Part shown: positions 2,403 through 12,393 of the stretch, piece after piece
Layout of the letters: each line of letters begins with the position of its first letter
Numbering within the stretch: position 1 is the first letter of the stretch
The notes under the pieces: generated by a model
Database searches by the model: none
Told to the model about the DNA's origin: nothing
The model's input: only the letters and a program-made list of their open reading frames with translations
NCBI GenBank assembly: GCA_031362565.1
Contig: JANLSU010000006.1
Span: 33,605-97,604 of the forward strand
DNA: 64,000 bases
Direction of reading: 5' to 3'
DNA from: a bacterium
GTDB taxonomy: Bacteria; Krumholzibacteriota; Krumholzibacteriia; G020349025
Translations under genes and position numbers: made by a program

Positions 2403-2437
2403 GGCTGGAGAGGGCGAGTGCTTCGCCCTTTCCAGCC
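2403..2437. terminator. Strong intergenic hairpin (possible terminator or processing stem)
   Basis: GGCTGGAGAGGGCGA-GTGCT-TCGCCCTTTCCAGCC forms a 15-bp stem with one G-T pair. No U tract. Confidence 0.4.
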
Positions 2438-2456
2438 GACATATTTGAAGGGGTTC

Positions 2457-3461
2457 ATGCGATCAGGTCGGCGCCGAGAGCACCGATTGTTCCTGCTCCT
2501 CGCGGCAGGCGTCGTCCTTTCCTGTGACGACAATACCCGCCCGCCGCCACCCGGTGACTCTTCGGAATGCGTGCCGGGGCACAACGAGTTCGACTTCCCG
2601 ATGCATCACCAACACCCTGCGTGGTCTCGGCAGGGGCTCGTTGCGTTCCAAGATGCGGGTATCGTCATGGTTGACTCGTCTGGCGTCTATGACACCGACT
2701 CGTCGTTGGCCGGACTGTGGGTGCTCAATCCGACCACCGGAGTACGGCGACGCATTACTCCCTATGGACGCGCACCGACGTGGTCGCCGGATGGGACGAA
2801 GATCGCGTTTTCCGTCGGGCAGATTTTCACGGTGAATCCCGATGGGACCGCGCTTCGGCAACTCACCTTTCTTGGTGCTCACCACTTTCCTTCGTGGAGT
2901 CCTTCTGGGGACTTGATCGCGTACGACGACGCACAGCATCTGTGGATCATGCGCGGGGACGGCACGAACCCACAGAATATTGGACTGGTGGAACAGCCGC
3001 AAGGTTCGCGAATGCCGAGTTGGAATCCCAACGGGACGAAGATCGTTTACATCGGGTATGTCGACGCAACGTTCCCTACGTCGCGCGCGGAGGTTTTCGT
3101 GATGGATGCGTCGGGCACCAACGCGGTGCGGATAACCACCAACGAGACCGATGACACGTTCCCGGTGTTCTCACCAGATGGGCGAAGTATTGCATACAGC
3201 GGCCAGTTTCTTGATGGCACCATCCCCGACTATCTGCTTCCGCAGATCTGGGTAGTGAGTGCTGATGGTGGCGGCGTCCGGCAACTTACCGCTCACGGCG
3301 GCTATCATCCTTCCTGGTCCTCGAACGGCTTGATGATTGTCTACACTCGAGAGAATGCCATTTGCGACATCCCGGGAAATGGCGTTCTGTGGACGGTCGA
3401 TCTCCGAACGGGTGTCGAGACGCAGCTGACGACGAAATGGCCCGAGCAGTCCCTGCAGTAG
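2457..3461 (+). CDS. TolB-like PD40 beta-propeller lipoprotein
   Basis: Lipobox VVLSC and repeated P.WSPDG..IAF/Y (PD40) motifs. Confidence 0.85.
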   Translation: MRSGRRREHRLFLLLAAGVVLSCDDNTRPPPPGDSSECVPGHNEFDFPMHHQHPAWSRQGLVAFQDAGIVMVDSSGVYDTDSSLAGLWVLNPTTGVRRRITPYGRAPTWSPDGTKIAFSVGQIFTVNPDGTALRQLTFLGAHHFPSWSPSGDLIAYDDAQHLWIMRGDGTNPQNIGLVEQPQGSRMPSWNPNGTKIVYIGYVDATFPTSRAEVFVMDASGTNAVRITTNETDDTFPVFSPDGRSIAYSGQFLDGTIPDYLLPQIWVVSADGGGVRQLTAHGGYHPSWSSNGLMIVYTRENAICDIPGNGVLWTVDLRTGVETQLTTKWPEQSLQ

Positions 3462-3826
3462 GGACGAAATCCCCGGCGGCAAGGAAGCACTGCCGGGGAC
3501 TCGCCGCTGCGAACGAGGGGCGATCGTTCTCTGGAGCCTCGGGTACGATGCCTCCCGACATCACTGATGTCGAGCGCTGTCGCAGCGGCGGCGATTCTAC
3601 CACCGCCCAATCGGCCTCGCCAAGGACTGGCGTACAAATGACTCGATGCGACGTGGATCTCAATCGGGCCCCGTAGGGACCTTGAGCAGATCATGAATCG
3701 CTCGATGATCTGGATATTGAATCGCCCCGGGATCGCCGGAGACTCCAATCCTTGAGAGGACGCTCCTATTGTCCGTAAGCGGTCTATAGTCGGAGCCTAG
3801 CTCCCGGTCCGGACTTGGGATAGAAG

Positions 3827-3850: not shown

Positions 3851-3991
3851 CGCGGAGGTCCGGAGCGTACTCCGTTAGACGCGGCTAGCGTCTGCTGAAT
3901 TACATCCACCTAGCGCAGCGCCATACGCCAGAACGATGGCGCAGATCTTGGACCCAGCACGGCGTGGCCGGTAGCTGAGCCACTGCGTTGG

Positions 3992-4077
3992 TGGTGCCGG
4001 GGCCGGGACTCGAACCCGGACACCCTTTCGGATAGAGGATTTTAAGTCCTCGGCGTCTGCCATTCCGCCACCCCGGC
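3992..4077 (-). tRNA. tRNA-Leu (anticodon TAA), CCA encoded
   Basis: Reverse complement GCCGGGGTGGCGGAATGGCAGACGCCGAGGACTTAAAATCCTC...GGTTCGAGTCCCGGCCCCGGCACCA, with a long variable arm. Confidence 0.97.
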
Positions 4078-4215
4078 TACCGGAGTGGATGCTAGGAAGT
4101 GGGGAGGCGCGAGGCAAGGTGTCTTCGGTTTGCTGCCGCCGCAGCCGCGTCGCCAACCGTGGCTATCGAGCGGGGAACGACACTGGTGCGACCGCGGGAC
4201 TCATAGGGCCGGCCT

Positions 4216-6177
4216 CTACCGCTTGATCTTCCACCGCGACCAGCGTCCCGGGGTAGGCCCGGCGGGTTCCAGCTCCTCGAGGGCGGTCGCTAGGTCCTGC
4301 ATCGTCTGGTAGCGCTCCGCCTTGTCCTTCTGCAGGGTCTTCGTGACGATTGCCGCGAGTGCTTCGGGCAGATCGGGGTTCGCCTTGCGGATCGGCGGTG
4401 GCTCTTTGTTCACGATGGCGTACAGCACTGACATCTGGGTGTCGCCCTCGAAGGGCCGCCGGCCCGAGAACAGCTCGTACAGAACGATCCCGAAGGAGAA
4501 AATGTCGGTGCGGTGGTCGATGGTTCCGCCCTTCGCCTGCTCCGGGGACATGTACGCGGGGGTGCCGAGGGCGATCCCTGTCCGGGTGAGTTTCTCTTCG
4601 CTTTCGAGCTGCAGTTGCGCCAGGCCGAAATCCATGACTTTCACGACGCCTTCGTCGGTGATCATGATGTTGTCCGGCTTGATGTCGCGATGGACAATCG
4701 AATTGGCGTGAGCGGCTGCGAACGCCCTTCCGGCCTGGATCGCAGCGCCAACCTGCGCATTGAAATTCTTAGGATCGTCGTGCCGCCAGACCTTCAGGGT
4801 GCGCCCTTGCACGAATTCCATGGAGATGTAATACCGGCCGTGATCTTCTCCGACCTCGTACACCGTCGCGATTCCGGGGTGGCTCAAACTCGATGCGGCC
4901 TGGGCCTCGCGCATGAATCGCTCCACGTACCGCTCGTCGGCCGACAGCATCTTTGGCAGTAGAACCTTCAGTGCCACGATCCGCTTGAGCTTGACGTCGC
5001 GCGCCTTATAGACCACGCCCATTCCGCCGGCGCCGATCTTGCCGAGAATTTCATGATGGCCGAGCGTTTCGCCAGGTTCCGGCAGGCCTTTGAGCGCGAC
5101 GGTTCCGCCGCTGCTATGGGTCCCCGAAGGTGCGGGATCGAAATCCAAGACCTTCGACAAGCCGTCCGACTCCCGCCGCAGCCATCTCTCGAAGAAGAAG
5201 TTGGAGATGCTGTAACCCGTACCCACCTGCTTGACGCAACCCAACTGTCTCAGTTCGTAGAGGAGTGCGCTGACGCGATCACCGCCGACGCCGACGCGCG
5301 TTTCCAGAGCCACCGTGTCCAGATTCTCGCCCTGTACGAGGAGCAGGAGGATCTTCTTTTCGGCTGGATCGAGTGACTCGTAATCCACCGCAAAGAAGTG
5401 TGAGACCATGTCATCGGCGCTCGCTTCCTCGATCACTTCACCCAGAGTTCGGCCATCGAAAAGGCGCTCGCACAACAGTTGAACGAGGTACGGGTGATTG
5501 TTGGTCTTCTCCATGACCGCCTGAACGTCCTCGGGCCTGAAGCCGCCCGGTTGGATCAGTGTCCTCGCTTCCTCATCGCTCAACCTCGAGAGATACAACG
5601 GCGGAACGAACCCGTTCAGGAACGGCGACGTGTCGGTGAGTGCGCTGCGCTCGAGCTGGCCCAAACGCCGGGTGGCCGTGAGCACCGTGCGCAACGCCTC
5701 GCCCTGCTGCAGCACCCGCCGGAGTCGAGGCAGAGTCTCGGGCGCCGCCTTCTCGATGTTGAGGAGTTCCTCGCATTCGTCACAGAGCAGCATCAGGCTG
5801 AGGTTCTTGTCCCGCGCCTTGCGCTCCAGGTGACGCAGGATCTCGAACACGGTCATCCCGGCAAGCTCGTCGCAGCCGACCCCGATCGCCTCGAAGCGCT
5901 CGTCAGCGGCCTCGACGCTCTCGATCAAACTCTCCTTGAGGCCGGCCAGATCTCGGCTGCCCTGCAGATCCCACAAGAGAACGATGTATTCGCCGGCGTA
6001 AGGCGGGGACTGGCTCAGATGCTCGAGCTGCTTGAGTAACGACGTCTTGCCCAAGCGGCGCGTGCCGGCGACCCAAACGTAGTTCCGGCTTCCGTGCAGC
6101 ACTTTCTCGAGCAGATCCTGGCGGCCGATGAACTTCTCACCACGCACCCATTTTCCCGCCGTGAAGGGATTCTTCAT
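4216..6177 (-). CDS. STAND/AAA-type P-loop ATPase fused to winged helix and C-terminal Hanks-type Ser/Thr kinase
   Basis: NPFTAG..FIGR, Walker A GTRRLGKTS, Walker B LLCDECE. Kinase motifs GAGGMGVVY, VALK, HRDIKPDN, DFGLA, GTPAYMSPEQ. Confidence 0.92.
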   Translation of the reverse strand: MKNPFTAGKWVRGEKFIGRQDLLEKVLHGSRNYVWVAGTRRLGKTSLLKQLEHLSQSPPYAGEYIVLLWDLQGSRDLAGLKESLIESVEAADERFEAIGVGCDELAGMTVFEILRHLERKARDKNLSLMLLCDECEELLNIEKAAPETLPRLRRVLQQGEALRTVLTATRRLGQLERSALTDTSPFLNGFVPPLYLSRLSDEEARTLIQPGGFRPEDVQAVMEKTNNHPYLVQLLCERLFDGRTLGEVIEEASADDMVSHFFAVDYESLDPAEKKILLLLVQGENLDTVALETRVGVGGDRVSALLYELRQLGCVKQVGTGYSISNFFFERWLRRESDGLSKVLDFDPAPSGTHSSGGTVALKGLPEPGETLGHHEILGKIGAGGMGVVYKARDVKLKRIVALKVLLPKMLSADERYVERFMREAQAASSLSHPGIATVYEVGEDHGRYYISMEFVQGRTLKVWRHDDPKNFNAQVGAAIQAGRAFAAAHANSIVHRDIKPDNIMITDEGVVKVMDFGLAQLQLESEEKLTRTGIALGTPAYMSPEQAKGGTIDHRTDIFSFGIVLYELFSGRRPFEGDTQMSVLYAIVNKEPPPIRKANPDLPEALAAIVTKTLQKDKAERYQTMQDLATALEELEPAGPTPGRWSRWKIKR

Positions 6178-8315
6178 GTCGTGTCACCTCCCTCGACCAC
6201 GCTCAGAACGACCTCCCGCACGGCTTCCACGTCGCCCACCGTGACTCGGCGGCGCTTCTCTTCGATGATCCGGTTGATGACGTTGATGCAGAATCTCTGG
6301 ATGAGGTAAGGCTTGCGCTCGCTGTACTCGAGGATGCTATCGATGGCGCGGGCGTCGTAGCTGAAGATCCCCTTCACGGGCTCGCAGATCAGGTTCGTCG
6401 CGTCATCGGCTTGCAGCGGCGGAATCTCCATCTCCTGGAAAAAGTTGTACCAAGGGCTGCCTTCGCTCTCCCAGTTCTTCCGGATATAGGCACCTGACAT
6501 CACCGCGACGAGGTTGTCGGCAAAGGACTTCATGAACACACTCCGGAGCCGTTGATTGACTTGCTCGGAGTACTTGTTCAGTTCGTCGACCTCATCGATC
6601 AGGAGCACGAGCTTGAGCTGCTTCTCGGTCGTCTTCTTCAGCGCGTCGATCAAGGTCTTGAGATCGCGCGAGAACTCCCGCCCGGAATAATCGTTCTTGT
6701 TCCTCTGAAGCTCGAAGGACAGCACGTCTTTCAGTCTGGGCCTGCACGCCTCCAAGATGTCTTCTATGAGCGTGTTGAAGAAGCGATCCTCCGACGTCCC
6801 TTGCAGGTCGATCATCACCGGGATGTAGAGGTAGTCGGGGTCCTTGAGGGTTTCGAGCCGGCGCTTGAGTTCATGCTGCAGCGACGTCTTGCCGATCCGG
6901 CGCGGTCCGTAGAGCATGAGGCTGTTGTTGTGCAATGTGTTCAGGATGCGGGTCAGGAGTTGTTCGCGCCCGAAGAGCATCTTTTCGTTACGGATCGGCG
7001 ATCCTGCGATATACGGGTTGTACTTGTTGATGATGGCGATGCGGTACTTGATCGCCTTCTGCAGCAGCACGGCGCCAAGTCCGAGCAGGGCAATCGCGGC
7101 CAGGGAAATCCGAAAAACCGCCGTTTCGTACACCGCGGGCTTCCGGAAGATTCTGAACGGCTCGGGAGTCCAGTGTTGCGGCGAGTCCACGTCGTACGCC
7201 GTGACGACGATCTGGTTCTCGCCCTTCTGGAGTGGAATGTCGGTGGCGAAGGCGATGCGCTTCGGGTCGTCGGTTGGACCTGGTCGAATCATGACTCGCA
7301 CGCCCGATGCATCGAGCAACGGCGCGCCGTTCAGAGTGAACTCGATGTGATCGATGCCTTGGTCGTCCCCGACCTGGCCGGCCAGCCGCGCGTTGCCGGA
7401 TCGCACCTGCGTCACTGAACCCGCGGGGGTGGAGATCGCGAAGAGTGGGGCAATGCTCTGCGGCATCGCCGGATCGGGCGGCTCGACGATCTTCTCGTCG
7501 GTCTTTTGTTTCAATCCCGCCAGATCGGCCTGGGTCTTGCGCACCCATGCCGCGGCAACGCCGAGATTGGGATCCTGCTGCAGGGCCGCCGTGAACTCTT
7601 TGAGCGCCAGCTGGTACTCACCCAGCAGGTAGTGATTGAGCCCAGCTTCGAACCTCTCCCGACCCATCGGCGCCACCGGTGGCGGTAGTAATGGCCTAGG
7701 GATGTCGGGTTCCTGCCTCATCAAGCGGATGTATTGTTCGAGACTGTTCCAGCGCCGGTCACCAGGACGGCGAGTCTTCAGCTCGTCGATCTTGGCTTGC
7801 GCCTGGATAAAGTCCTCCGCGTCGATCAAATCGAGTGTCGCCGACAGCGTCGAGAGCGTCGAGTCGCGAGAGTCCGGCGCCGCTGGGCGCGGCTCGGCAG
7901 GAAGAACGAGCTGCTCGGCGATCTTCTTCAAACGTTCGAGATGATGCTGGTGGGTAGTTTTCGCAACCTCGCCCGCCTGTTCTTCCTTGCGAAAATTCTC
8001 CAACGCCAATCGCGAGTCACCGGAGTAGAGATACGCCTGTCCAAGATAGTAATACGGCAAGTACTCGACGAGTTTGAGGCCGGCGGTCATTGCTTGACGG
8101 TCGGGGTGCGAGCGATCTGCGACAGCGGCTTGAAAGCTCGCAACGGCCTTGTTCCAGTCGCCGTGGTCGAGCGCGCTCTTGCCGTTCTCGTAAGCCTCGT
8201 TCCAAACCTCGGCGTGCAGCGCGGATCCCGAGAGGCAGATGGCAAGGAATACAACACAGGTCGAGATGTGCCATCGGTGTTCAGGCGCGAGACCCGACAT
8301 TTTGATCAACCGCAT
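6174..8315 (-). CDS. Membrane-anchored protein: signal peptide, TPR repeats, Ig-like domain, TM helix, cytoplasmic STAND/AAA ATPase
   Basis: Hydrophobic N-terminus ending LHA, TPR-like helices (YYYLGQAY; G..HYLLGEY..A), Ig-like GENQIVVTAYD, TM segment ISLAAIALLGLGAVLL, then NPYIAG..LFGRE, GPRRIGKTS, LLIDEVD. Confidence 0.88.
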   Translation of the reverse strand: MRLIKMSGLAPEHRWHISTCVVFLAICLSGSALHAEVWNEAYENGKSALDHGDWNKAVASFQAAVADRSHPDRQAMTAGLKLVEYLPYYYLGQAYLYSGDSRLALENFRKEEQAGEVAKTTHQHHLERLKKIAEQLVLPAEPRPAAPDSRDSTLSTLSATLDLIDAEDFIQAQAKIDELKTRRPGDRRWNSLEQYIRLMRQEPDIPRPLLPPPVAPMGRERFEAGLNHYLLGEYQLALKEFTAALQQDPNLGVAAAWVRKTQADLAGLKQKTDEKIVEPPDPAMPQSIAPLFAISTPAGSVTQVRSGNARLAGQVGDDQGIDHIEFTLNGAPLLDASGVRVMIRPGPTDDPKRIAFATDIPLQKGENQIVVTAYDVDSPQHWTPEPFRIFRKPAVYETAVFRISLAAIALLGLGAVLLQKAIKYRIAIINKYNPYIAGSPIRNEKMLFGREQLLTRILNTLHNNSLMLYGPRRIGKTSLQHELKRRLETLKDPDYLYIPVMIDLQGTSEDRFFNTLIEDILEACRPRLKDVLSFELQRNKNDYSGREFSRDLKTLIDALKKTTEKQLKLVLLIDEVDELNKYSEQVNQRLRSVFMKSFADNLVAVMSGAYIRKNWESEGSPWYNFFQEMEIPPLQADDATNLICEPVKGIFSYDARAIDSILEYSERKPYLIQRFCINVINRIIEEKRRRVTVGDVEAVREVVLSVVEGGDTT

Positions 8316-8317
8316 GG

Positions 8318-9679
8318 TTAGAACTCGATATGAGCGGAGCCGGTGACCGAATTGACCTCTCGCGACGCCAACAGGCCCAAGTCCAACTTGAAGTTACCGA
8401 TCGGTACGATGCCGATTCCTCCAGCGAAGTAGGTCCGATCCTTGGCCTCGGGATAGAAGCCCTGCAGATTCACATTGCCTTCACTAGCATGAATGCGATG
8501 GCCGGGGTTGGTGAAGGCGCCAGCTCGCACCGGCACGATGCCCAACCAAGGCAGGTCGGCGATGAACTCCACCCCGACGTGAAACTCGTAGGCGTCAGTG
8601 GCCACCAAGTCCGGCTGTCCGTCGGGGTCCCGGTAGGTTCCGCCGGCGTCCGGCGTGTCGTCGGCGATCGCATTGCGGCTGTTGCCATCCAAGAGGTCGG
8701 AGTACTCGATCCGCGCCACGTCGAAGGCGAACCGCAGTCGATCCATCATCACATAGTAGAAGCCCAGGCCTTGGGAATCGGGAATGTGGAAATCGAACGG
8801 CACATTCCGCAACAAGCTGGCGGGAAGCACCTCCGCGCCGACCGTGTACTCGGGAAGGAAAACATCGCTGTGGAACGTGTACTTGGGACGGACGTGCGCC
8901 ACAGCGCCAAGGAACAGTTTATTCCGGAAAAGGGTGGCCAGCATCCCGAGATCATAGGTCGGGGCGACGTCAGTCTGGTCCAGCGTCGTGACGGAGTACA
9001 TGGTTTCTACGGAGTTCCGCCTTGGCGCACTGCCATTGGCAACCTCCGGATCCAAGAAAAGGTGCTCGCTCGCGCTGATCCTGAGGAAGGACAACCGGGT
9101 ACACGCGCCGAAGCTGATGCGATTCGACGGCGCATAAGCCATCGCAACGCATTCGTCGACGAGCGTCAGGTTCAGAGTGACTCGGCGTCCGGGAAAGTTG
9201 CCCAGGCCCCCGAGCACCTGACGAGCGTTGAGGGGCGACCGGGTCGTGAGGAATTGCTGGGTCTCGAACTCGAAGCGCGAATCCATCTGGACCTGGCGAA
9301 ACATCGAAAAAGCGAACTTCTTCATCGGATAGACGAGGCTGACCAGGCTTTGTTCGAAGTTGGATGAGCGGAAACGCTTCGTGCCCGTTGGGTTGTCCGG
9401 GGAGCCTTCAGGCTCGTCATAGTTGAGTTGTGACCAGCGTTGGTGCGTGGACGCTCCGGGTTTGTCGAGGCGCGTCATCCCAGCCGGATTGACGCTGGAC
9501 GAGATCTCGTCTTGGGCCGCCGCGATGAACGCGCCAGCCAGTCCGCTCGGTCGCGCGCCGGGGACAATGAAGTCGACCCTGAAATAGCGCGGATCCAACG
9601 CCGCGACGGGAGGGCGCTGCGCTTCGCAGTCCCAGGCGACGAGCAAGATGAGAACACCGGCGCAGTGCGACAGCCGCAT
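8318..9679 (-). CDS. Outer-membrane beta-barrel, FadL/PorV-like
   Basis: Signal peptide, GARPSGLAGAFIA..D...NPAG plug motif, amphipathic strands and C-terminal Phe (AHIEF). Confidence 0.8.
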   Translation of the reverse strand: MRLSHCAGVLILLVAWDCEAQRPPVAALDPRYFRVDFIVPGARPSGLAGAFIAAAQDEISSSVNPAGMTRLDKPGASTHQRWSQLNYDEPEGSPDNPTGTKRFRSSNFEQSLVSLVYPMKKFAFSMFRQVQMDSRFEFETQQFLTTRSPLNARQVLGGLGNFPGRRVTLNLTLVDECVAMAYAPSNRISFGACTRLSFLRISASEHLFLDPEVANGSAPRRNSVETMYSVTTLDQTDVAPTYDLGMLATLFRNKLFLGAVAHVRPKYTFHSDVFLPEYTVGAEVLPASLLRNVPFDFHIPDSQGLGFYYVMMDRLRFAFDVARIEYSDLLDGNSRNAIADDTPDAGGTYRDPDGQPDLVATDAYEFHVGVEFIADLPWLGIVPVRAGAFTNPGHRIHASEGNVNLQGFYPEAKDRTYFAGGIGIVPIGNFKLDLGLLASREVNSVTGSAHIEF

Positions 9680-10030
9680 GACTTGGTTTCCCCCGATGGC
9701 CGCGAGTTTTGTCATCGTACCGGATCCGGGGTCGCGTTGCACGGCCGGGTCCCTGGGGCTTCCCACGGCCCCCGGCTCTTTTTTCACTCGACCGATCCTT
9801 TCACCCGGTCGCGCGTCTGGGCGCACCCCGGTCGCATCACACTCCGTTCCGTCCTCCTGTCACGCACGGGAGGTGCCCATGGTCTCGCCAACTCGCACAC
9901 GATCGCATAGGGTTCTGGGCGCCGCTGCGGCGGCACTCCTCCTGCCGTCTTCGGAGGCCTGCCTGGACGCCGTTCGCGCCGCATGCCATCATGCGGCTTC
10001 TATCAGATGCCACACCCACGGAGGTCTCGC

Positions 10031-11014
10031 GTGGCGGACGCCATCGTCCTGCACAACGTCACGAAAACGTTCGGCTCGAAGGTCGCGGTGAGCGAACTGG
10101 ACCTGGTCGTACCGACCGGTGCGCTCTACGGCGTTATCGGACCGAACGGCGCCGGAAAGACGACCAGCATCCGGATCATCCTGTCGATCCTGTTTCCGGA
10201 TCGCGGTGACGTCCACGTGCTGGGACACAAGTCGGCGCTCGAGGCCAAGGACCGCATTGGGTACCTGCCCGAAGAACGCGGCGTCTATCGCAAGATGAAG
10301 GTGGGCGACTTCCTCACTTACATGGCGCACCTGAAGGGCTTGAGCGGCTCCGACCTGCCGGCGCGCATCAACCGCTGGCTGGAGCGCGTGGGGCTGGGTG
10401 GCACGGCGCAAAAGCGCTGCGACGAACTCTCGAAGGGTATGCAGCAGAAGGTGCAATTCGTAGCGGCGGTCATTCATGAACCGGCGCTCGTCATCTTGGA
10501 CGAACCGTTCAGTGGTCTCGATCCGGTGAGTTCGCGGCAGTTGCGTGAACTCGTGCTGGAGGAACACGCGCGCGGCGCGACGGTCATTTTCTCGACCCAC
10601 GTCATGGAACACGCCGAACAACTCTGCGACCACATCGTCATGATTCACGGTGGGCGCAAAGTGCTCGACTCGAACATCCGGCAGATCCGCAATTCGCAAG
10701 CCGTGCGCGGTTTGTGGTTTGAACCGCTTGAACCGAATGCGCCGGTGGATGACGTGCGGCAAGTGCCGGGGGTGCTACGCGTCGAGCGGAATGGCGGGGC
10801 TTGGGAAGTGACTCTCGCGAGCGGAGTCGATCCGGCAACCGCGCTGCGCGCGGTCGCGACTTCAGTTCCCTGTGCGCGCGTCGAATTGCGCCGGCCCACT
10901 CTGGAGGATGTCTTCGTGAGCATTGTGAGCGGCTCTACGGATGGTGCGTCGCAGGATGCGGCCCAGTTACGCGATCAATTGCGTGCCGGCTCGGCGGGGG
11001 AGGTGCGGGCATGA
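10031..11014 (+). CDS. ABC-2 exporter ATP-binding subunit (NatA/YhaQ-like, DUF4162 C-terminus)
   Basis: GPNGAGKTT, LSKGMQQK, ILDEPFSGLD. GTG start after a GGAGG RBS. Confidence 0.92.
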   Translation: MADAIVLHNVTKTFGSKVAVSELDLVVPTGALYGVIGPNGAGKTTSIRIILSILFPDRGDVHVLGHKSALEAKDRIGYLPEERGVYRKMKVGDFLTYMAHLKGLSGSDLPARINRWLERVGLGGTAQKRCDELSKGMQQKVQFVAAVIHEPALVILDEPFSGLDPVSSRQLRELVLEEHARGATVIFSTHVMEHAEQLCDHIVMIHGGRKVLDSNIRQIRNSQAVRGLWFEPLEPNAPVDDVRQVPGVLRVERNGGAWEVTLASGVDPATALRAVATSVPCARVELRRPTLEDVFVSIVSGSTDGASQDAAQLRDQLRAGSAGEVRA

Positions 11015-12393
11015 AAAAGATCTGGTGGGTGGCGCGGCGCGAATTTCTGGCGACGGTCACGACCAAGGGATTCATCGTTGGCGTGCTCCTGACCCCGGCG
11101 ATGATCGCCATGATGATCCTTCTTTTTCCGCGCTTGATGAACGAGAAGACACCGCGCGTTGAAGGCGAGATCGCGATTCTGGATTCGACGGGCGAAGTCG
11201 CGGACGGCGTCAAAACCTTCCTGGCGCCGGAGGCGATGGCCGAGCGCCGCGCCGCGGACCAAAAGGCGTTCAAGGCGATGGCGGATGCCAAGCTAGGGCC
11301 AGCAGCGAAAATGCCGCAGGCCAAGCTCGGCACGGACATGATCGAGGCCCAGTTAGGCGAGGTGCCGAAGTTCGAAGTCGTGATCCTGCCGGCGGGAACC
11401 AACCTCGACCACGAGAAGGAACCGCTCAAACTGATCGGCGACCCCAAGAACCGCTTGGCGGTCGTCGTCGTGCATCCGGACGCCGTCGTGCCCGCGGCTG
11501 GCAGTTCGACGTTCGGCAGCTACGACCTGTTCGTGCGCGGCAAGCTCGACGACCGGATCGAGGACGATATCCGCGAGGGGCTCAAGCACTCGATCGTCGA
11601 TGCGCGCGTCAAAGGCCAAGGCATGAACCGGGCGCAGATCGAAGCCCTGACACAAGTCAAGCGCGTGCCGTCGACGAGTGTCACGACGGGCGGCGAGCGG
11701 CAGACCAACGAAATCGTCAATGCGCTCTTGCCGATGGGCTTCATGGGGCTCCTGCTCGTCTCGGTCTTGATGAGCGGCCAGTACCTGATGACGAGCACCA
11801 TCGAAGAAAAATCGAACCGCGTCGTCGAAGTGCTGCTCTCGGCCGTTTCGCCCAAGGAACTCATGGTGGGCAAGGTGTTGGGCGGCATGGCCATCGGCTT
11901 GTTGATCCTGGCGCTCTACATGGGCCTCGGCGTGTGGGCGCTCTTTACCTTCGCTGTGGCCGGCATCGTCGACATGCATTTGTTCATCTACCTGATCGTC
12001 TTCTTCTTCATCTCGTACTTCGTGATGGCGAGCATGATGGCGGCCATCGGTTCGGCCGTGAACGAACTGCGCGAAGCGCAAACTCTCATGATGCCGCTGA
12101 CCATGTCGCTCATGATTCCATGGATCCTGTGGGCACCATTGAGCCGCAACCCGAACTCGGCATTTGCGGTGGCCCTCAGCATGATTCCGCCGATGAACAG
12201 TTTTGCGATGATGCTGCGGCTGACCTCGACCTCACCGCCGCCGCTCTGGCAGGCGCTGCTTTCGATCGGCATCGGGATCGTGTCGGCCTACGTGGCCATT
12301 TGGTTCGCGGCCAAGGTTTTCCGGATCGGCGTTCTCATGTATGGCAAGCCGCCGAATTTCGCGACGCTGGTGCGCTGGGCGCGCATGGCATGA
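11011..12393 (+). CDS. ABC-2 exporter permease (NatB/YhaP-like)
   Basis: N-terminal TM, large extracytoplasmic loop, EEKSNRVVEVLLS motif and several C-terminal TMs. ATGA overlap with the previous gene. Confidence 0.9.
   Translation: MKKIWWVARREFLATVTTKGFIVGVLLTPAMIAMMILLFPRLMNEKTPRVEGEIAILDSTGEVADGVKTFLAPEAMAERRAADQKAFKAMADAKLGPAAKMPQAKLGTDMIEAQLGEVPKFEVVILPAGTNLDHEKEPLKLIGDPKNRLAVVVVHPDAVVPAAGSSTFGSYDLFVRGKLDDRIEDDIREGLKHSIVDARVKGQGMNRAQIEALTQVKRVPSTSVTTGGERQTNEIVNALLPMGFMGLLLVSVLMSGQYLMTSTIEEKSNRVVEVLLSAVSPKELMVGKVLGGMAIGLLILALYMGLGVWALFTFAVAGIVDMHLFIYLIVFFFISYFVMASMMAAIGSAVNELREAQTLMMPLTMSLMIPWILWAPLSRNPNSAFAVALSMIPPMNSFAMMLRLTSTSPPPLWQALLSIGIGIVSAYVAIWFAAKVFRIGVLMYGKPPNFATLVRWARMA

Follow-up and report, generated by a model that had tools for sequence, protein, structure and literature searches.

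The g1-g2-g3 locus and its three proteins

We analysed a 64,000-nucleotide stretch of a Krumholzibacteriota genome assembly (GCA_031362565.1, contig JANLSU010000006.1, positions 33,605 to 97,604), here called the window, and focused on three co-directional open reading frames (ORFs) on its minus strand, g1 (8318-9826), g2 (6174-8315) and g3 (4216-6177). An original prediction, made from the letters alone, had proposed that these genes form a trans-envelope system of an outer-membrane barrel, a membrane sensor ATPase and an ATPase-kinase. Direct reading of the junctions showed that g1 and g2 are separated by 2 bp (TAA-cc-ATG) and that the g2 stop overlaps the g3 start as ATGA at 6174-6177, which agrees with the close spacing that had been proposed. 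The genes on both sides of the triad lie on the plus strand, indicating that the triad is an isolated three-gene unit.

The longest g1 frame begins with GTG at 9826 and encodes 502 aa. The methionine at 9679, Met50 of that frame, begins the signal-peptide-like sequence MRLSHCAGVLILLVAWDCEAQ, and the protein counted from there fits the length of its homologs (442-489 aa); we therefore placed the start at 9679, which gives a protein of 453 aa (8318..9679, minus strand). It matched the Pfam Toluene_X/FadL family (PF03349) with an E value of 5.7e-6 and 25.5 bits, under the cut-off of 29.7, and PF03349 is precomputed on 48/51 listed members of the g1 family. A profile search of the PDB gave weak matches only, to CymD (E 0.023) and TodX (E about 1). 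Proteins of the FadL family are 14-stranded barrels with an N-terminal hatch that carries an NPA motif. Near the N-terminus of g1, N64-P65-A66-G67 is invariant in the family alignment and compatible with the hatch motif. By its family assignment, g1 is probably a FadL/OmpP1/TodX-family outer-membrane channel. The barrel had been described as FadL/PorV-like; the FadL part is favoured, whereas PorV/PorQ identity was rejected, since the NF033709 model scored 17.1 bits against a cut-off of 90 and its match was limited to residues 87-132.

The g2 protein (713 aa; 6174..8315, minus strand) is a membrane sensor ATPase by ORF and Pfam analysis. Its two hydrophobic peaks lie at residues 15-35 and 399-420. 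The first falls within a signal peptide or N-terminal hydrophobic segment (residues 1-35, 8211..8315), which reads ...SGSALHA/EV and has its hydropathy peak at window starts 15-20, and the second is the single transmembrane helix (residues 399-420, 7056..7121), which is followed by KAIKYR on the cytoplasmic side. Between them, residues 36-398 (7122..8210) are predicted to be extracytoplasmic and to comprise three TPR-like helical modules and one Ig/Fn3-like beta-sandwich. This assignment draws on Pfam TPR_2 (5.2e-9), on Foldseek and on an AlphaFold2 (AF2) model with a predicted local distance difference test (pLDDT) score of 86.1, built from 63 aligned sequences, in which three helical-repeat modules and a beta-sandwich were seen. 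Foldseek matched the model to generic TPR proteins, including BamD, and to Fn3/Ig-like modules, with 3pe9_A reaching a TM-score over target of 0.73 and a root-mean-square deviation of 3.2 A. An ESM Atlas look-up of the periplasmic part returned only TPR- and Fn3-associated clusters, the best at 0.81, which is sub-threshold.

Beyond the helix, residues 431-713 of g2 (6177..7025) form a cytoplasmic P-loop ATPase with a nucleotide-binding domain and a helical lid, as indicated by Pfam, alignment and motifs. The scores for ATPase_2 (39.8 bits, cut-off 33.2) and AAA_16 (35.9 bits) were both above their cut-offs, and Walker A (GPRRIGKT at 470) and Walker B (VLLIDE at 570) are intact. Because g2 433-686 aligns with g3 3-251, only 27 residues remain after the aligned lid, and on this alignment g2 has no winged helix after the lid. 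Thus, the exported TPR and Ig domains, the one transmembrane helix and the cytoplasmic ATPase of the original prediction were all recovered by Pfam, hydropathy, AF2 and Foldseek.

The g3 protein (653 aa; 4216..6177, minus strand) is an ATPase-winged helix-Hanks kinase by ORF and Pfam analysis. Residues 1-345 (5143..6177) were modelled by AF2 with a pLDDT of 86.9 and a predicted TM-score (pTM) of 0.83, and Foldseek, scored by TM-score over query (TMq), placed the archaeal ATPases 2qen (E 5.4e-12, TMq 0.69) and 2fna (E 1.2e-10, TMq 0.63) nearest. Further matches included plant NLR resistosomes (TMq 0.55-0.59), ORC/Cdc6, Apaf-1, CED-4 and Avs3. A PDB profile search with a kinase-free alignment gave 2fna_A as the best match (E 0.0023) and winged helix-turn-helix (wHTH) proteins at residues 270-324. 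In the model, this region appears as a STAND/ORC-type module with the features of a STAND nucleotide-binding oligomerisation domain, namely a P-loop domain, a helical domain, a winged helix and Walker A/B motifs. Walker A (GTRRLGKT at 38) and Walker B (LMLLCDE at 128) are intact. Residues 377-627 (4297..5049) are a Hanks-type Ser/Thr kinase domain (Pfam Pkinase, E 1.2e-47) with a complete set of motifs, GAGGMGVV at 382, VALK at 401, HRDIKPDN at 496, DFG at 516 and SPE at 544, and a search with the family profile gave PknB, StkP and PknA as the closest relatives (6e-72). The proposed homologous ATPase, winged helix and intact kinase of g3 were thereby confirmed at the level of motifs, Pfam and model.

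Pairing of the two ATPases and conservation of the locus

Alignment of g2 433-686 with g3 3-251 gave 27% identity over 270 columns (E 4e-17). The two ATPases are paralogs by this alignment, in line with the homology that had been noticed in the original prediction. The Walker A lysine and the acidic pair (DE) of Walker B are invariant in both partners in 23/23 pairs. In the family, the Pfam models ATPase_2 and nSTAND1 matched 23/23 g2 ATPases, and nSTAND1 matched 20/23 g3 modules, all near or under its cut-off. Pairwise distances among the g2 ATPases correlate with those among the g3 modules within each clade (Mantel r 0.85 and 0.90, 0/2000 shuffles). As a comparison of sequences, this shows co-inheritance of the two genes and not necessarily contact. 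Both genes are single-copy in 5 triad-bearing metagenome-assembled genomes (MAGs), with one distant extra ATPase in G041.

We then modelled a complex of the g2 ATPase and the g3 module with two ATP, using row-matched alignments of the two. The median score was 0.35, compared with 0.00 for the best of 3 controls; the runs agreed in at least 71% of contacts, and partner pLDDT was at least 85. In calibration, the mark was reached by 116/157 solved complexes and 2/215 mismatched pairs. Scores of 0.60 or less accounted for only 18/157 solved complexes and for both passing mismatches, and for this complex the counts are a rough guide, given the self-made alignments and the riding ligand. The prediction gives weak support and slightly raises the odds that g2 and g3 touch. 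The paired-ATPase complex of the original prediction is accordingly firm as a pairing of genes and faintly favoured as a physical contact.

The conservation of the gene order was assessed with a barrel-family profile on one-genome-per-species contigs, which yielded 16 loci with 14 close barrel relatives. A g2 ortholog directly follows the barrel in 11/11 informative loci, the other 3 of the 14 reaching the contig end, and a kinase-bearing g3 ortholog follows g2 in 8/9 loci with at least 1 kb beyond g2 (the contig of L035 ends 0.7 kb past g2). The results showed that the three-gene order is kept across genomes of several phyla, as the check suggested with the original prediction was meant to establish. 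The MAGs that carry triad loci are labelled KSB1, Calditrichaceae or Caldithrix, Cytophagia, or unclassified/'bacterium', with GC contents from 37% to 54%. Compared with the window, the barrels of these loci are 39-49% identical and the periplasmic parts of g2 36-41%; the corresponding values are 67-74% (g2 ATPase), 51-62% (g3 module) and 53-60% (kinase). Among kinase-type loci, the g2 ATPases share 62-73% identity. The g2 sensor region remains alignable, at 32-44% identity to the window in the 15 triad loci and 25-51% over all 62 rows. Genes downstream of g3 differ at every triad locus. The neighbours are housekeeping genes (ProRS, radical SAM, sigma-54 activator, PTPS, MOSC), and no mobile or defence genes were seen beside the triad loci.

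We also scanned metagenome contigs with the g3 module and searched the best 80 of 367 relatives with self-built hidden Markov models. A g2-type ATPase gene lies directly upstream on the same strand in 64/69 loci with at least 300 bp of upstream sequence, at a gap of 21-757 bp; L113 and L115 have partial g2-type matches at the contig edge. Three kinase-type loci (L049, L053 and L055) lack an upstream g2, and the upstream sequence of L049 carries a barrel fragment on the opposite strand. The 75 complete g3 ORFs divide into 7 that are fused to a kinase (~638 aa) and 68 that consist of the module alone (~347 aa). Where at least 1.5 kb of sequence precedes g2, the barrel is present in 4/4 kinase-type loci; L048 has it too. 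By gene content, the g2-g3 pair is the invariant core and the barrel is confined to the kinase-fused clade. Of the trans-envelope triad proposed for this locus, the unit itself is thus conserved, and the barrel as a general part is not.

The output attached to the g3 module varies. Among 130 clusters, fusions to a Hanks kinase form the majority; others carry an extracytoplasmic function (ECF)-sigma-like domain, sigma plus kinase, an OmpR-type Trans_reg_C domain or no fused domain, which indicates signalling rather than a toxic defence effector. The g2 ATPase profile, searched against 1.84 billion proteins, gave 536 representative clusters at a threshold of E<=1e-30; at E<=1e-10 the number rises to 4945. 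In the best 150 of the 536 (238-1874 aa, some probably fragments), the ATPase mostly sits at or near the C-terminal end, behind N-terminal regions of a few to ~1,150 residues, an arrangement that fits a receptor family. None of 72 g2 family clusters bears a specific name, and the database names of g2 and g3 proteins are generic ('TPR repeat protein', 'ATP-binding protein', 'protein kinase').

In the short-type clade, a soil clade on contigs of ~70% GC, the pair is part of a four-gene operon. Its first two genes encode an Amidase_2-domain protein (~490 aa) and an actin homolog of the Volactin family (~355 aa; Pfam PF25216, E down to 8e-88), and g2 (~815 aa) and the short g3 (~347 aa) follow in that order. 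In 16/18 short-type loci with enough sequence, g2 immediately follows the actin gene, and the operon was recorded at L068, L069, L070, L075 (1846-8041), L080, L084, L086, L087, L094-L096, L098, L104, L105, L110 and L114. Among the literature matches listed for volactin, only Haloferax and other archaea appeared.

Several further arrangements were observed. At L032:3725-4816 a GWxTD-domain gene is inserted between barrel and g2, and at L039:11557-11961 a 23S rRNA-intervening-sequence/bAvd-like gene is inserted between g2 and g3. Tandem barrels occur in L037, L042 and L044. In a Calditrichaceae MAG (L036:10759-11552, also G045:C42:6414-7240) the g2 ATPase is split over two frames, indicating a frameshift or an assembly error. 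At 7 loci, a gene for a GAF-sigma-54 activator-HTH protein precedes the barrel in divergent orientation, the copies sharing 60-81% identity (L032:2-1330, L033:2448-3989, L035:1516-3039, L038:142-1680, L039:6245-7771, L042:1462-3003 and L044:6251-8026). Sigma-54 control of the triad was rejected, and the activator gene was taken as local synteny, because 13 upstream regions gave no consistent -24/-12 site and the window has no such neighbour. In the window itself, the presumed promoter location is the region upstream of g1 (9680..9982, minus strand), where scans found no promoter site, that is, no convincing -24/-12 element and no sigma-70-like site.

The triad is flanked in the window by an ABC transporter pair at 9983-12393 (plus strand; an ATP-binding protein and a permease-like protein, judged from the translations) and by a PD40 beta-propeller protein at 2418-3461 (plus strand). 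Two small minus-strand ORFs downstream of g3, at 3875-4156 and 3286-3663, have no Pfam match.

Forty relatives of the source genome were searched as well, and close g2 homologs were found only in G002, of the same family, which has two (57-60% identity). At these loci (L015:7887-13157 and L016:6548-9427), one g2 homolog is followed by an ATPase-winged helix-sigma70_r4-kinase protein of 897 aa, and both homologs have at their N-terminus an additional extracytoplasmic domain (~300 aa) that matches no Pfam family. Six class-level relatives have a rearranged triad (L017:7554-12552, L018:7298-11950, L019:7297-12275, L020:6825-11750, L021:431-5428 and L022:126-4357) that encodes a signal peptide-TPR-PEGA-transmembrane protein (~250 aa), an ATPase-transmembrane-4xPEGA protein (~735 aa) and a Hanks kinase-nSTAND2 ATPase protein (~650 aa). 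The source genome carries the start of the ATPase of such a PEGA-type triad at a contig edge (G000:C111:5-730, L024). In G001 (L023:7135-9030), a 631-aa protein has a g2-like extracytoplasmic region and a transmembrane helix but lacks the ATPase, and the next gene encodes a PD40/DUF2268 protein (1038 aa).

A proposed signalling route and its alternatives

We favour, with somewhat better than even confidence, the interpretation that the triad is a conserved envelope-to-cytoplasm signalling module built on paired, related STAND/ORC-type ATPases. In such a module g2 would be the receptor, with its TPR/Ig region in the periplasm, one inner-membrane helix and a cytoplasmic P-loop ATPase as the switch, and g3 would be the cytosolic partner, in which the paralogous ATPase and winged helix bear the output, here the Hanks Ser/Thr kinase. 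A periplasmic cue may act on the g2 ATPase by altering its nucleotide state or its oligomerisation. For the present clade, the probable cue would be a hydrophobic molecule that enters through the FadL-type g1, or else the state of g1 itself. The g2 ATPase could then engage the g3 ATPase through a homotypic ATPase-ATPase contact, and clustering of g3 would gather the kinase domains, leading to autophosphorylation and to phosphorylation of targets. In sister clades the same pair would drive an ECF-sigma-like or OmpR-type DNA-binding domain, or act without a fused output. A wider proposal, which we regard as tentative, is that g2-g3 represents a widespread and unrecognised mode of transmembrane signalling, in which a receptor STAND-like ATPase with a variable sensor outside the cytoplasm acts on a paralogous cytosolic ATPase with interchangeable outputs, a mode that would rank with two-component systems, sigma/anti-sigma pairs and receptor kinases. 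In the present clade the FadL-type channel would extend it to a trans-envelope relay of three tiers for a hydrophobic cue, and soil bacteria would wire the pair to an actin homolog and a peptidoglycan amidase-domain protein.

Several observations weigh against the signalling module. For two kinase-type g3 genes, no g2 lies in the upstream sequence, over 2.4 kb in L053 and 0.8 kb in L055, and the barrel and g2 of L034 are not accompanied by a g3 within 5 kb. In the larger short-type clade the barrel is missing at all 18 loci (present in 0/18); the 40 relatives yielded no full-length barrel homolog with the window barrel as query; and both g2 homologs of G002 lack a preceding barrel, one of them also lacking a g3 neighbour. 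No target, phosphatase or FHA gene is linked to the triad. The complex prediction passed weakly, with no interface reported. The actin-like and amidase-domain neighbours of the short-type pairs could point to a structural or morphogenetic role. As to the data themselves, the ORF calls in the loci of 70% GC came from a simple script of our own, and the loci are not independent lineages; several are near-duplicates (L123/L124, L087/L089 and L075/L084).

One alternative is that the locus is a STAND/NLR-type anti-phage or conflict system, in which g2 senses an envelope breach or phage attachment and g3 acts as a helper whose kinase triggers abortive infection. Such a role would suit the fold of the g3 module, which is related to those of NLR resistosomes, Apaf-1 and Avs3, and also the patchy distribution: none of the 40 relatives yielded a barrel homolog, and G002 alone has close homologs of g2. 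Paired STAND operons have been predicted to be conflict systems (Kaur, Iyer, Burroughs & Aravind 2021, eLife, PMC8195603). Matches to defence models were also obtained, weak ones in the case of g2: the only PADLOC match of g2 was PDC-S01, over 53 residues (539-591, E 1e-6), the NCBIfam anti-phage model DS41_1 gave g2 17.9 bits against a cut-off of 370, and the g3 kinase matched PD-T4-6, mad6 (MAD6) and MkoA. However, the PADLOC kinase matches cover the kinase domain only (residues 366-651), PknB-type models score equally, and any Hanks kinase would probably do so. A toxic effector is absent, the alternative outputs being sigma-like, OmpR-type wHTH or none; the pair is single-copy in the 5 MAGs; the g2 ATPase is strongly conserved across kinase-type loci and even the sensor region can be aligned; and the neighbours are housekeeping genes. 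The NLR/Avs-like immune role suggested in the original prediction therefore finds little support in these data, and we consider defence unlikely.

Two other explanations keep the envelope in view and differ in what the ATPase pair would be for. If g1 imported a hydrophobic nutrient such as a fatty acid or a hydrocarbon, g2 and g3 could serve only to signal to catabolic genes elsewhere that it is available, by analogy with TodX-type channels, which are found together with their regulators. The FadL/TodX family of g1, the tandem barrels at three loci, the regulatory outputs on g3 and the divergent GAF-sigma-54 activator gene upstream of the barrel in 7 loci are all compatible with an uptake-linked regulator, but no conserved catabolic genes lie beside the triad, the downstream genes differ from locus to locus, no consistent -24/-12 promoter precedes the barrel, and most g2-g3 pairs have no barrel. 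This explanation is improbable as it stands, and mechanistically it is a special case of the signalling module with a nutritional ligand. A very unlikely third account is an envelope-spanning structural or morphogenetic machine, in which the TPR region of g2 docks on an outer-membrane or peptidoglycan partner, the ATPase pair organises or powers remodelling of the envelope and the kinase is a secondary regulator. The TPR domain of BamD docks on BamA, and Foldseek returned BamD for the g2 periplasmic model, but together with generic TPR proteins. The short-type operon with its Amidase_2-domain protein and Volactin homolog, and the PEGA-domain versions in relatives, also fit a structural machine, whereas the sigma-like and OmpR-type outputs fit regulation better, and the triad clade has no linked genes for a transporter, a secretin or a synthase.

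If the signalling module is correct, it would represent a new route for signals across the bacterial inner membrane, in which a receptor ATPase activates its partner by homotypic contact. The logic of sensor/helper NLR pairs would here be put to ordinary regulation with a periplasmic sensor. The family would offer a handle on roles of FadL-type channels beyond nutrient uptake. It would also show how Hanks kinases that lack a sensor could be controlled in the poorly studied Krumholzibacteriota, KSB1 and Calditrichota.

Comparison with known systems

Searches for a named system gave no counterpart. In PADLOC-DB v2, no system-specific model matched over most of its length, and g1 had no match at all. 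A literature search on STAND pairs, FadL and Hanks kinases found no matching description, although supplements and figure source data could list related architectures. PMC7159879 and bioRxiv 10.64898/2026.10.19.760177 (ParA-based receptor-like systems), in the parts that bear on this question, concern other membrane-linked NTPase systems and not this one. These PADLOC, NCBIfam and literature results agree with the view, taken from the outset, that the architecture is not a named system.

Several established systems share single features with the triad. The PF01637 archaeal ATPases PAB2304 (2qen) and SSO1545 (2fna) combine an ATPase with a C-terminal winged helix, as the g3 module does, but they are single soluble proteins of unknown function at 15-16% identity, with no kinase, membrane partner or paired gene. 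Classical STAND proteins and NLRs (MalT, AfsR, Apaf-1, plant NLRs and Avs) have the domain set of g3 and place sensor and output around an NTPase switch. In the triad, by contrast, sensor and output are on two paralogous ATPases, the sensor is extracytoplasmic beyond a transmembrane helix, and g2 has no winged helix. The pairing of the kinase AfsK with the STAND regulator AfsR is a functional analogy. PknB-type receptor kinases are close to g3 in the kinase domain, PknB, StkP and PknA being its nearest relatives, and share the full catalytic motifs; the g3 kinase, unlike them, has no transmembrane helix or PASTA sensor of its own and is attached to a soluble ATPase-winged helix module.

FecA-FecR-FecI, used here as an analogy only, comprises an outer-membrane barrel, an inner-membrane protein that spans the membrane once and has a domain in the periplasm, and a regulator in the cytoplasm. 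The three tiers resemble those of the triad, and some g3 relatives carry an ECF-sigma-like domain, which may be seen as a further parallel. The barrel here, however, is of the FadL type and not TonB-dependent, there is no anti-sigma domain, an ATPase pair would take the place of proteolysis, and no component is homologous.

The nearest described arrangement is the nSTAND2 two-gene operon, a computational prediction in which, as set out in the passages of PMC8195603 that deal with it, adjacent STAND NTPases presumably form a hetero-multimer, one partner having eroded NTP-binding motifs and carrying a GT4 or HEPN effector. Two adjacent STAND-type NTPase genes are common to that operon, as those passages describe it, and to the triad, and the kinase-fusion ATPase of the PEGA-type triads in six relatives matches Pfam nSTAND2 (6e-40). 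The ATPases of the g2-g3 family differ: nSTAND2 (PF20702) matched 0/23 g2 ATPases and 3/23 g3 modules (best E 0.0021), and the window's own proteins had no PF20702 match at E<=0.01. By Pfam, the window ATPases sit among ATPase_2, nSTAND1 and AAA_16, outside nSTAND2. Walker A and B are kept in both g2 and g3, in contrast to the eroded partner described in that source, and the g3 outputs are a kinase, a sigma-like domain, a wHTH or none, compared with the GT4 and HEPN effectors named there. In addition, g2 is a membrane receptor with periplasmic TPR/Ig domains, and in this clade it is linked to an outer-membrane channel. The triad thus lacks the defining features of the nSTAND2 operon, and it is best described as an undescribed variant of paired STAND-type signalling.

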